Source of the DNA: a virus
Lineage: Duplodnaviria; Caudoviricetes
Length of the DNA stretch: 64,000 nt
Virus record (IMG/VR): IMGVR_UViG_3300030376_006980
Coordinates: 1 to 64,000 of that record
Strand: one strand, 5' to 3'
A model generated the notes under the pieces. The model saw only the letters and a list, made by a program, of their open reading frames with translations. It did not search any database and was not told the origin of the DNA. Made by a program: the position numbers and the translations under genes. Every line of letters begins with the position of its first letter. The stretch's first letter is position 1. Below, piece by piece: positions 1,418-58,727 of the stretch.

Positions 1418-1440
1418 TAATAGTTTAATACTTTATATAG

Positions 1441-1467
1441 AAAGCCACTCTTCGGAGTGGCTTTTTT
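1441..1467 (+). terminator. Rho-independent terminator after capsid gene
   Basis: AAAGCCACTC-TTCG-GAGTGGCTTT plus T tract; cUUCGg tetraloop. Confidence 0.92.
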
Positions 1468-1514: not shown

Positions 1515-2357
1515 ATGGTAAAATTAAAAACATATGATCAATTTGTTAATGAAGCATTAATAGATGCAGTTAAGAATCCGATTAAATGGAAGAAGATTAA
1601 AAACAATGCTAAGAAATATCAAAAGGCTAAAGTAGCACAAGCTCTTAACGATGTAGATTTTGCAAAGAAAAAGGCAAAAGGAAAAGTTAGTATGACTGCT
1701 AAACAAAAAGAAGTTTTGGCCCAAGCAAATAAAGCTAAGAATGCTGCACTTAAAGATCAGGCTGATGCTATTACACAAAGAATGAATGATTTAGCAACAA
1801 CTGATGGTTTAAAAAAGGTTGCTGCATTGGCAAGAACTAAATCTAATCTTGCTGCTAATAAGATAGTACTTAAGGCTGCTGATGGTGAAGAAGCTAAACA
1901 ATTAAAAATTAAACAAACTGCATTATCTAAAAAGGCTGCTGAACAAGGTAAAGCTTTAGCTGACTATGAAGATACCTCATCTGATTCTAAAGATGATAAT
2001 GAAGGAGAAGCAGCAGCAAAATTAGAAAAAGGTATTAAGGACTTTCAATCTAATATGGATGCTGCTCAAGAAACTAAGAAAAAAGCTAAAGAAGCTTTGG
2101 TTAAATTAGGAGATAAGAAAAAAGAACAAGAAAAGAAAGGTACTGGTGGTGAAGACGGTGAAAAGGCAATGGATAAAATTAATAAGGAAATCACTAAACA
2201 AGAAAGATTAGTAACTGGTGCTGATGAAGATTATGCTGAACTTAAAAAGAAAAGAGATGGCTTAAAAGATAAGTTAGCTAATTTAACTAGTGAATCTTTT
2301 GAATATGTAGCAGAATCTGTTTCTCAGAAATTTGCAAGATTAAGATCAAATCTGTAA
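1515..2357 (+). CDS. Lys/Ala-rich internal head protein with capsid-targeting-like N-terminus
   Basis: N-terminus MVKLKTYDQFVNE|A resembles the T4 internal-protein CTS MKTYQEFIAE; coiled-coil-like composition; directly after MCP. Confidence 0.6.
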   Translation: MVKLKTYDQFVNEALIDAVKNPIKWKKIKNNAKKYQKAKVAQALNDVDFAKKKAKGKVSMTAKQKEVLAQANKAKNAALKDQADAITQRMNDLATTDGLKKVAALARTKSNLAANKIVLKAADGEEAKQLKIKQTALSKKAAEQGKALADYEDTSSDSKDDNEGEAAAKLEKGIKDFQSNMDAAQETKKKAKEALVKLGDKKKEQEKKGTGGEDGEKAMDKINKEITKQERLVTGADEDYAELKKKRDGLKDKLANLTSESFEYVAESVSQKFARLRSNL

Positions 2358-2371
2358 AAATAATTATTAAT

Positions 2372-2437
2372 ATGAAATGTGATTGTAAAATATGCGGCTG
2401 TGGTAAATCATGTGAATGTACATGTTGTAGCTGTTAA
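2372..2437 (+). CDS. 21-aa metallothionein-like micro-protein (MKCDCKICGCGKSCECTCCSC)
   Basis: Translated by hand; 9 Cys in CxC/CxxC/CC clusters; A/T-rich leader; fills the intergenic gap. Confidence 0.75.
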   Translation: MKCDCKICGCGKSCECTCCSC

Positions 2438-2448
2438 ATTAAAACCTT

Positions 2449-2952
2449 ATGTATAAAGTTCGTAAAATAAACTTTGGATGGTATAAAAGGCGGTATGGTA
2501 TTCTTCTAGAAAACTTACCGCCTTTGAAGCAAAAATTGCTTTTAAATAACCGTCATATGAAATGGTTAGATTCTGATACTCAAGCTTTTGAAATTATATT
2601 TAAAGTAGAGGATATGAATGGCCATGAAAAGAATGTTAATAAACCTATTTGGAATCCTTTCAGAGAAACATTCACCACACTTAAAGAATTAGAAAAAGAT
2701 GCGGATCTTATTGATTGGAATTGTGGAATATGTAAAGTTCCTATTAAATCTAGAATGGACTCTAAGAAAGTAGAAAATTTTGTTTGTAGTAAATGTTCTA
2801 AGGCTCATAACTCACGGAACAAAAGTGTAGATGGTAGAATTATAGATACATCAATTAAATTTACTAAACACTGTAAACACCTCTTAAAAAAGGAACAAAG
2901 AGAGTTTATGACTTATGCTAAAAGATCATCTAAGGCTAGCCGCCTGATTTAA
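2449..2952 (+). CDS. Hypothetical protein with CxxC-x17-CxxC zinc finger
   Basis: CGIC...CSKC; 167-aa ORF. Confidence 0.6.
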   Translation: MYKVRKINFGWYKRRYGILLENLPPLKQKLLLNNRHMKWLDSDTQAFEIIFKVEDMNGHEKNVNKPIWNPFRETFTTLKELEKDADLIDWNCGICKVPIKSRMDSKKVENFVCSKCSKAHNSRNKSVDGRIIDTSIKFTKHCKHLLKKEQREFMTYAKRSSKASRLI

Positions 2953-3729
2953 TGTAATTTTAGGAAATACTTTTAATCTGCTATTAGGTGATGCATTAAT
3001 TACTTCTACTCCAGTTCCTTTCAATTCATCATAAAGTTGTTTAAATCCTGGTAAAAACTTTTCTTTATATACTTTATCACCAGATGATCTAGTTGGATAG
3101 CCATCATGAAAATGTGTATCTTTTCCATCTTCTGCCATATCAAATCCTAGTAAGACAATTCTTTTTGCACCTAAATGATATGCTAAATTAATTGCAGCAT
3201 ACCCACTATTAAAACCATGAGCTAATGTTTCAGGATCAATTTCTAATCCATAAGGTTTTCCTTTTCTTAATATTTTAATGTCGGATGTATATTGACTTCC
3301 AGGTTTTAATGCAAATTTTAAACCTTTAAAACTATCTACTTCATTCTTAAACCATGTGTAGAATCTGCCATCGGTCCAATATACAACATCTGGATCTGTA
3401 ACATAAATTAAGGCTTTATTAATTGCAATTGTTCTTTTTCCATATAAAGATCTAAAATCAAAACCTTTTAATGACGGACCTCCTCCAACTATAAAAATTG
3501 TTTCGTTAGGAAATAATTTAGGAACATAAGAATATCTTACTGTTCTTGGTTTTTCTTCTGCTGCATTTTTAAGAGAGTGTTGAATTTTTGTAATGTTTGC
3601 TGCAATTGCTTGATTATTAGTAGTCCTTACAGCACTCCTCTCATCATTCCTTCTTTGAATATTAGTTCTAACATTTTGAGTAAAAATGGGTTCTTGAATA
3701 ACTTTTCTAACACTTCTTCTTTTTTGCAT
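2926..3729 (-). CDS. Maf/DUF115 (MptE-like, CstII-like fold) putative nonulosonate/Kdo-type glycosyltransferase; only credible minus-strand gene
   Basis: IFIVGGGPSL, IAINKA, GFNSGYAAINLAYHLGAKRIVLLGFDM, THFH; paralog at 42486. Confidence 0.65.
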   Translation of the reverse strand: MQKRRSVRKVIQEPIFTQNVRTNIQRRNDERSAVRTTNNQAIAANITKIQHSLKNAAEEKPRTVRYSYVPKLFPNETIFIVGGGPSLKGFDFRSLYGKRTIAINKALIYVTDPDVVYWTDGRFYTWFKNEVDSFKGLKFALKPGSQYTSDIKILRKGKPYGLEIDPETLAHGFNSGYAAINLAYHLGAKRIVLLGFDMAEDGKDTHFHDGYPTRSSGDKVYKEKFLPGFKQLYDELKGTGVEVINASPNSRLKVFPKITLNQAASLR

Positions 3730-57975: not shown

Positions 57976-58317
57976 ATGGAACATTTTAAAACATACGGTG
58001 AATTTATAACTGAAGGCCAATTAAACGAAAAAGATTATTCTACTGAGCAAAGAAAAGAAATGGCAGAAAAAGGATTAGCTTTACCTGATGGTAGTTTTCC
58101 TATTGCTAATGTTCAGGATTTAAAAAATGCTATTTTATCTTATGGCAGATCAAAAGATCATTCAAAAGTTGCTAAGTTTATAGCAAAAAGAGCAAAGGCA
58201 TTAGGTGCTGAAGATCTTATTCCAGATACAGAAGATTTTCAAAAGGCACTTAAAGAAGTTGCTATGAGAGTTCCTGCAAAAACAATTGCAATTGATTCAG
58301 AAGAAGACGAGGACTAA
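57976..58317 (+). CDS. Internal head protein candidate (CTS-like)
   Basis: MEHFKTYGEFITE; ALPDGSFPIANVQDLKNAI..YGR. Confidence 0.6.
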   Translation: MEHFKTYGEFITEGQLNEKDYSTEQRKEMAEKGLALPDGSFPIANVQDLKNAILSYGRSKDHSKVAKFIAKRAKALGAEDLIPDTEDFQKALKEVAMRVPAKTIAIDSEEDED

Positions 58318-58646
58318 TGGCATGTAAATCTTGTAAATGTGGTAAACATGCTCATGATAAGGTTATAGAGCAAATGGATGATTTGACTAAACCTTTTACG
58401 CAAATTCATACAACAGAAGCAGTCGTAAGACATTTTGATAAATCAGCACCTGATCATTTATATAAATGGCATGCCGATGATGAAGATCGTTATGTACAAT
58501 CTTTAAATGAAAATGATTGGAGCTTTCAATTTGATAATGAATTACCTCAATCAATGGAACCTGACAAAATTATTTATATTCCTAAAGGTTTAATACACCG
58601 CTTAATTAAAGGTACTTCTGAATTAAGTATTTCTATAAAGTTTTAA
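58317..58646 (+). CDS. Small cupin-fold protein
   Basis: WHADDEDR...FQFDNELP...IYIPKGLIHRLIKG. Confidence 0.6.
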   Translation: MACKSCKCGKHAHDKVIEQMDDLTKPFTQIHTTEAVVRHFDKSAPDHLYKWHADDEDRYVQSLNENDWSFQFDNELPQSMEPDKIIYIPKGLIHRLIKGTSELSISIKF

Positions 58647-58678: not shown

Positions 58679-58698
58679 TAATATAGATTAATAACCAC

Positions 58699-58727
58699 TT
58701 TCAGAAATGGTTATTTTTTGTTATTAT
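58699..58727 (+). promoter_or_regulatory. Class A promoter (TTTCAG-N17-TATTAT), overlapping an AATAACCA/TGGTTATT hairpin
   Basis: Exact 17-nt spacer. Confidence 0.65.

Follow-up and report, generated by a model that had tools for sequence, protein, structure and literature searches.

The 64,000-nucleotide stretch of phage DNA analysed here (the window) carries a micro-gene of 21 codons on its plus strand (2372-2437, with the ATG at 2372 and a TAA stop codon at 2435-2437). Its product, MKCDCKICGCGKSCECTCCSC, contains nine cysteines in 21 residues, as the original prediction had described. The conservation pattern makes it highly probable that the micro-gene is real and that selection acts on its peptide. 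By analogy with known metallothioneins, the product is probably (at a probability of roughly 0.6) a minimal metal-thiolate peptide encoded by a host-like auxiliary gene.

The micro-gene and its setting in the window

Cysteine accounts for 43% of the product (9/21 residues), with the spacing CxCxxCxCxxxCxCxCCxC; the mean cysteine content of the window's long ORFs is 0.84%. No other start-to-stop ORF in the 64-kb window combines a cysteine content of at least 18% with more than four cysteines, and the two further 21-codon stretches with nine cysteines are out-of-frame readings within long genes. In 30 mononucleotide shuffles, the best stop-free 21-codon stretch reached at most six cysteines.

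Gene finders miss the micro-gene, which lacks a Shine-Dalgarno sequence. A Shine-Dalgarno signal is absent throughout the window, where gene starts are preceded by A-rich leaders, as is expected for Bacteroidota and their phages. The leader of the micro-gene, AAATAATTATTAAT (2358-2371, plus strand), is an A/T-rich segment of 14 nt, also without a Shine-Dalgarno sequence, which travels together with the micro-gene in the window's lineage and is kept in sister loci. The start context of the micro-gene resembles the real gene starts of this phage: it scored 3.93 with a position weight matrix under which the 57 long genes of the window average 3.65, and just 1.5% of the other ATGs reach this score. 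No RNA fold signal was detected in the micro-gene stretch (z = +0.32) and an Rfam scan of the same stretch gave no match; the possibility that it is an RNA element was rejected on these two results.

The G+C content of the window is about 30% and one strand carries nearly all genes. The micro-gene had been placed after the capsid operon, but it does not directly succeed the capsid gene. The gp23-like major capsid gene (2-1417, PF07068) is followed by an intrinsic terminator-like hairpin (1439-1466, plus strand; 12-bp stem with five G-C pairs, and a T run), then by the gene of a 280-aa Lys/Glu-rich coiled-coil protein (1515-2357, plus strand), and then by the micro-gene. The hairpin marks the start of the transcription unit that contains both the 280-aa gene and the micro-gene and ends at a convergent minus-strand gene (2926-3729). 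The capsid protein shares 50% identity with that of the uncultured 462-kb phage LR756500.1 and 33-38% with those of the Prevotella Lak megaphages and of Tenacibaculum phages, while DNA-level matches of the window came from its clamp-loader gene only.

The stop codon of the 280-aa gene lies 14 nt from the micro-gene ATG. The region of this stop, CTGTAA, makes up one side of the indel microhomology described below. Orthologues of the 280-aa protein precede the micro-gene in 31 contexts. The N-terminus of this protein, MVKLKTYDQFVNEA (1515-1556, plus strand), resembles the capsid-targeting sequence of T4 internal proteins, MKTYQEFIAE, which is cleaved after Glu. Moreover, several of the small proteins encoded after the micro-gene in other loci (L123, L127, L140, L175 and L184) start with MKLSxIILE. 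Judging from their N-termini, the 280-aa protein and the MKLSxIILE proteins may be head-internal and processed by the prohead protease.

On the other side, 11 nt downstream of the micro-gene as originally claimed, the ATG at 2449 opens the gene of a 167-aa protein with a Zn-ribbon-like CxxC-x17-CxxC motif (CGIC-x17-CSKC; 2449-2952, plus strand).

Conservation, spread and mobility

The 167-aa neighbour was used as anchor to collect sister loci, so that the search was blind to cysteines, and 80 related IMG/VR loci with neighbour identities of 70-100% were retrieved. In 35 of them, a 21-codon ORF lies 9-11 nt before the 167-aa gene. Five others hold the micro-gene 1-1.8 kb upstream, with an O-fucosyltransferase-like gene inserted between, 37 are without the micro-gene, and three were set aside as they had too little upstream sequence. 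The 35 syntenic copies correspond to 20 DNA versions, every one of which runs from ATG to TAA over 21 codons. Silent TGT/TGC swaps were seen at eight of the nine cysteine positions. The sole cysteine replacement among these copies is Cys16 to His (TGT to CAC), which involves two base changes; histidine is another metal ligand. The non-cysteine positions vary among K, N, D, E, S, T, G and A, and position 7 holds I, V, T, K, E or N. Nei-Gojobori estimates gave pS 0.74 versus pN 0.008 for the cysteine codons and a dN/dS of about 0.6 for the non-cysteine codons. The check that had been suggested with the original prediction, whether related phages keep the frame and the cysteine pattern, was run on these 35 syntenic loci (20 DNA versions), and both were conserved.

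A second anchor blind to cysteines was provided by a 119-aa gene located upstream of the micro-gene in flavobacterial cells, for which 22 relatives of one genome were examined. An intact nine-cysteine 21-codon ORF lies 24-31 nt downstream of the anchor in all 15 relatives whose anchor identity reaches 61% or more, and the seven with 55-59% anchor identity are without a nine-cysteine ORF. In order- and family-level samples of Flavobacteriales, only the query genome was clearly matched by the 119-aa anchor; the order-level sample contained one further weak match (E = 1.9e-4), which is interrupted by a stop. A total of 124 DNA versions and 110 peptide versions were collected; the invariance of the cysteines in the pattern-derived sets is circular and carries evidential weight only in the two synteny-anchored sets. 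The product has 21 residues in all 110 distinct peptides. At their non-cysteine positions, except position 7, 1.5% of the residues are hydrophobic and 0.09% aromatic, versus 34% and 10%, respectively, in the proteome of the window. Taken together, the frame, the cysteine codons and the selection pattern are the signature expected for a translated peptide with essential cysteines.

These counts also bear on a proposed function. The micro-gene had been suggested to buffer metal for the many zinc-finger proteins of the window, an idea that found no support, the window having only two CxxC...CxxC proteins. A dedicated zinc-supply role toward the 167-aa neighbour is not supported, because 37 sister loci have the 167-aa gene without the micro-gene. 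Their pairing is not obligatory, given these 37 of the 80 loci and the five with an inserted gene, and the micro-gene is also present outside this pairing in many unrelated contexts and on host chromosomes.

The spread of the family was assessed with a degenerate DNA pattern for the cysteine spacing, run over IMG/VR and over one-genome-per-species prokaryote contigs. In IMG/VR, it picked out at least 120 stretches, whose gene contexts are of several unrelated kinds. The prokaryote contigs gave 35 matches, about 31 of which are real, the rest being poly-Cys repeats; one of the real matches (L219) lies in a phage-like context. The real matches come from metagenome-assembled and single-cell genomes of marine Flavobacteriales, including Cryomorphaceae MED-G11, Marisimplicoccus and 'uncultured Bacteroidetes' AG-xxx, and the carrier genomes that were checked measure 0.8-1.4 Mb. 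In cells the micro-gene occupies a fixed chromosomal site after the 119-aa gene, for whose product no family and no usable Atlas match were found. The cellular versions mostly begin with MDCNC and the phage versions with MKC. Small-genome marine Flavobacteriales are the likely host group. The pattern is absent from the cultured Flavobacterium phage immuto and from LR756500.1.

In the cellular loci L202-L235, a conserved motif, AAAGTTATTAACAATTT, is found about 40-60 nt after the micro-gene stop, and in L236 a strong terminator with a 15-bp stem (2186-2219) lies about 235 nt after it. Possible identities of this downstream region are a 3' UTR, a small RNA and an operator.

Where sister loci have no micro-gene, the upstream gene is joined directly to the 167-aa gene. 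In L025, CTGTAA is immediately followed by ATTAAAAC, while a remnant of the end of the micro-gene, CTGTTAA, persists in L022 and L029. The indel, judged from these junctions, thus spans about 80 nt and is cleanly bounded by CTGT(T)AA microhomologies. On the tree of the 167-aa neighbour, the presence and absence of the micro-gene take six changes, at least four of which are forced by well-supported branches. The micro-gene is accessory and mobile. A second junction type was observed at the same site, roughly 10 nt ahead of the micro-gene ATG, in L010, L015 and L024, where the 14-nt leader is missing and the ATG falls within the end of the upstream gene, whose TGA overlaps micro-gene codons 3-4.

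Outside the window's lineage, the micro-gene occurs in at least three other settings. In 29 loci, it stands between an 81-95-aa gene and the gene of a flavoprotein of about 430 aa. In about 18 loci, the same 81-95-aa gene and the micro-gene are followed by the small MKLSxIILE proteins, within a replication module that encodes a primase, a PD-(D/E)XK exonuclease and a SegE-like GIY-YIG endonuclease; this primase shares 62% identity with that of the cultured Flavobacterium phage immuto. In the third setting, the micro-gene precedes a dCMP deaminase gene, tail-fibre-like genes and others. When neighbours within 3 kb on either side were clustered over 111 contexts, only the 81-95-aa protein (a predicted mini-cupin, see below), the flavoprotein, the GIY-YIG endonuclease and replication or head genes were recurrent. 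No metal-sensor, transporter or chaperone gene is consistently adjacent to the micro-gene in phages or in cells. In L161 (414-920) and about 17 related loci, the gene of the SegE-like GIY-YIG homing endonuclease (PF19835, E = 4e-25) stands 1-1.5 kb upstream of the micro-gene and may help the region spread.

Chance, regulatory, redox and cupin-linked alternatives

A chance or non-functional frame, such as a TGT-rich repeat, could be suspected in an ORF that is very short, without a Shine-Dalgarno sequence and ignored by gene finders. This is extremely improbable in view of the shuffles, which never exceeded six cysteines per 21 codons, of the frame, start, stop and cysteine codons kept over 124 DNA versions with third-position variation, and of the conservation in two independently anchored synteny sets. 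The micro-gene might instead be a Cys-codon-rich uORF whose translation senses the supply of Cys-tRNA and tunes the downstream gene. The mycobacterial polycysteine leader ORFs, which are leaderless short first cistrons attenuating cysteine-related operons (bioRxiv 10.1101/834739), are like the micro-gene in being very short, dense in cysteine codons and upstream of another gene. Nine of the 21 codons specify cysteine, the next gene begins 11 nt downstream in the window, and selection on the cysteine codons alone would be expected for such a sensor too. However, the mycobacterial ORFs are first cistrons, whereas the micro-gene is an internal or last cistron, never the first in the window's lineage, with conserved peptide features and varied or absent downstream genes. 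The 11-nt spacer is too small for alternative hairpins, no fold signal was detected, and cysteine-metabolism genes are absent among the neighbours; of the features of an attenuating uORF, namely a first-cistron position, alternative hairpins and genes of the matching pathway, none was found. Moreover, 37 sister phages express the 167-aa downstream gene without any micro-gene, and the length of the peptide, its cysteine spacing and the polar character of its other residues are conserved. What lies downstream varies greatly from copy to copy, and immediately behind many copies there is either a terminator or no co-directional gene. An intrinsic terminator lies about 50-90 nt after the micro-gene in 21 contexts and directly after it in at least eight further contexts, and in the cellular loci a strong terminator separates the micro-gene from the next gene, which is convergent or lies 290 nt or more away. 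In the flavoprotein setting, the 124-143-nt spacer contains a conserved hairpin, then an intrinsic terminator and then a conserved CGTATATT box, and the micro-gene therefore closes its transcription unit there. Since the micro-gene is in these contexts followed by a terminator or has no nearby downstream gene, it is its product that matters and not the regulation of a downstream gene. Sensing of Cys-tRNA is thus very improbable: the conserved unit is the peptide, not the act of translating the micro-gene.

Two further alternatives accept the peptide as the functional product and give it another role. It could act as a thiol or redox peptide, whose nine thiols would either soak up oxidants, electrophiles or sulfane sulfur, sacrificially or recyclably, or serve as redox partner to the flavoprotein, which it precedes by 112-143 nt in 29 loci (24 peptide variants). 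The N-terminus of the flavoprotein is of the pyridine-nucleotide-disulfide-oxidoreductase type (PF07992, E = 3e-8) and the protein matches phrog_12409 'dehydrogenase'. This role is nevertheless unlikely, as the terminator and the promoter-like CGTATATT box between the two genes separate their transcription units, the flavoprotein is absent from the window and from the cellular loci, and coordination geometry accounts better than bulk thiol chemistry for the strictly fixed cysteine spacing and the Cys-to-His replacement. The flavoprotein was rejected as an operon partner of the micro-gene on account of the intervening terminator. Alternatively, the peptide could be the partner or substrate of the mini-cupin, with metal handed over in either direction, or with the cupin modifying the cysteines in a thiol-dioxygenase-type or RiPP-like manner. 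Of about 97 distinct phage contexts, 32 have the ATG of the micro-gene overlapping or abutting the stop of the 81-95-aa gene: 18 through an ATGA overlap, 10 through an overlap of 11 nt, and four with a single nucleotide between the two genes. In nine more, the cupin gene lies 0.2-2.2 kb upstream. The 81-95-aa protein is a predicted cupin (AF2 pLDDT 93), its top PDB matches all being cupins, e.g. the Mn-cupin TM1459 (TMq 0.67-0.69), and its residues H25, D27, E29, D30 and H67 are invariant. The homologue in the window stands alone among those seen in starting with an N-terminal tag, MACKSCKCGKHAH, which is missing from the coupled homologues. Against this stands the reverse control, in which a Cys-rich micro-ORF followed the cupin in only five of the 80 best loci out of at least 600 IMG/VR mini-cupin stretches, and this result weakened the cupin as an obligatory partner. 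In Flavobacterium phage immuto_3-5A (MW353176.1, L340:2384-2736), the same slot is filled by a 31-aa hydrophobic peptide with an ATGA overlap. Judging from the immuto slot and the reverse control, the post-cupin position appears to be a variable micro-gene slot that closes a transcription unit, and the cupin link is only a lead. In addition, the cellular copies of the micro-gene have no cupin neighbour, and neither feature of a RiPP precursor was found: there is no leader peptide, the first cysteine being residue 3, and no known maturase gene (radical SAM, MNIO, LanM, YcaO and so on) lies within 3 kb on either side in 111 contexts. A partner or substrate role for the peptide is accordingly quite unlikely. 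It is equally doubtful that the nine-cysteine peptide and the mini-cupin form an unrecognised two-part module, translationally coupled in many marine phages and, in the phage of the window, replaced by a cupin bearing a Cys/His tag of its own. If such a module existed, the peptide would load or unload the metal site of the cupin, or the cupin would modify its thiols, and this would be a new phage system for metal trafficking or peptide modification, going beyond a metal sponge.

Several observations were made on these neighbours. The mini-cupin of the window (109 aa; 58317-58646, plus strand; hmmsearch with the A2 profile, E = 8e-26) is distant from the micro-gene and is a possible partner. 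All three of its cysteines are inside the Cys/His tag MACKSCKCGKHAH, and no other ORF of the window has three or more cysteines in its first 16 residues; the tag hints at a functional link of the cupin with Cys-rich modules. A terminator-like hairpin lies at about 58692-58720, after the mini-cupin gene. In L262, the slot after the mini-cupin holds a 28-aa peptide with six cysteines. Some homologues of a protein of about 261 aa, named here 'PSLQYH' (L178:8900-10123, L157, L200, L143, L108, L095 and L154), have Cys-rich N-terminal extensions (MCQKCGCNKCE, MCDCGCNTCE, MSCNCENK) and others do not; these phages seem to make repeated use of Cys-rich tags. The hairpin of the flavoprotein spacer, found in L088 (820-946) and 20 further loci including L082, L090, L092, L094, L097, L108 and L109, has a fixed loop, ATTCATAGC, and a stem of 5-6 bp with compensatory changes (GACTG/CAGTC, GTCCG/CGGAC, GCTCG/CGAGC, GCCTG/CAGGC and GACAG/CTGTC). 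It has no Rfam match and is absent from the window.

Likeness to metallothioneins and significance

General metal buffering is, by analogy, the best reading of the role of the peptide. Three descriptive features of metallothioneins, a class whose defining property is the metal-thiolate cluster with its characteristic spectroscopy, are present: a low mass, in a single short chain of 21 residues; a very high cysteine content, arranged in CxC, CC and CxxC motifs; and a composition almost devoid of aromatic residues and poor in hydrophobic ones. Membership in a known family (PF00131, PF01439, PF02069 and others; NCBIfam) was not found. The window peptide matched nothing in Pfam at E <= 1, and scans of NCBIfam and PHROGs with this peptide and the 110 versions gave no significant match. 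PF01439 (Metallothio_2) was reached by 16 of the 110 peptides, at E >= 1.3 only, and a PDB search with a profile of the 110 peptides returned only the wheat Ec-1 metallothionein (2KAK), at E = 9.5. Eight peptide versions looked up exactly in a collection of about 15 billion proteins were absent, tblastn of the peptide against cultured phages, run with a low-complexity filter that makes its outcome uninformative, gave no match, and a literature search for phage or Bacteroidota metallothioneins returned nothing relevant. Of the proposal that this is a minimal phage metallothionein, the real gene and the metallothionein-like composition are upheld, but not the homology to a known metallothionein family. 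The peptide is best read from its sequence as metallothionein-like by composition only, and as a new peptide family.

The closest likeness in cysteine number is to the beta-type metallothionein domains of vertebrates and crustaceans, which hold an M(II)3Cys9 cluster; the original prediction was right that the counts agree. Both have nine cysteines forming four CxC pairs plus one, set among small polar residues (Lys, Asn, Ser, Thr, Gly, Asp) without aromatics. The beta-type domain, however, has about 30 residues, whereas the peptide has 21, with another spacing, and is a free-standing gene product; homology between them is undetectable. The fungal Cu(I) metallothionein of the Neurospora crassa type, of about 25 residues with seven cysteines, is also a gene-encoded, single-domain chain of similar length made almost only of Cys and Gly/Ser/Asn. 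It differs in having seven rather than nine cysteines and a different motif order, whereas the micro-gene peptide is of bacterial or phage origin, and PDB and Pfam searches with the micro-gene peptides returned nothing from this family. Wheat Ec-1 (2KAK) and PF01439 share a local xCxCGxxCxCxxCxC with the peptide, a weak resemblance with E-values far short of significance; Ec-1 is much longer and multi-domain and has His ligands. Among prokaryotes, the Cys-rich metal buffers SmtA/BmtA (PF02069) and mycobacterial MymT are longer than the peptide, at about 53-56 aa, and show no sequence match to it; SmtA has His ligands and folds in a zinc-finger-like manner. No ArsR/SmtB-type regulator is adjacent to the micro-gene in the cellular and phage loci inspected. 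SmtA-type proteins are used by marine picocyanobacteria, which offers an ecological precedent.

The metal-thiolate reading may be put together as follows. The micro-gene would be a translated accessory gene, and the nine cysteine thiolates of its product would enclose a small metal-thiolate cluster, which on the model of known metallothioneins would hold three Zn(II)/Cd(II) ions or some four to six Cu(I) ions; dimers or other chemistry are possible for a 21-residue peptide. As a miniature metallothionein, it would buffer, store or detoxify soft metal ions in the infected cell. Phages would carry the chromosomal peptide gene of Flavobacteriales as an auxiliary cassette of about 80 nt, moving between sites and lineages.

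We know of no metallothionein as short as 21 residues; if the peptide binds metal, it would be the shortest gene-encoded metallothionein known to us. Standard annotation overlooks the family, because genes so short are not reported by common gene callers. A 21-residue peptide is cheap to synthesise, which makes the central claim directly testable. With its cassette of about 80 nt, the family illustrates neatly how micro-genes pass between hosts and phages. The family is common in uncultured ocean Flavobacteriales with genomes of 0.8-1.4 Mb and in several phage lineages, and it could matter for the handling of Zn, Cu and Cd in surface-ocean heterotrophs and for the redirection of these metals during infection.
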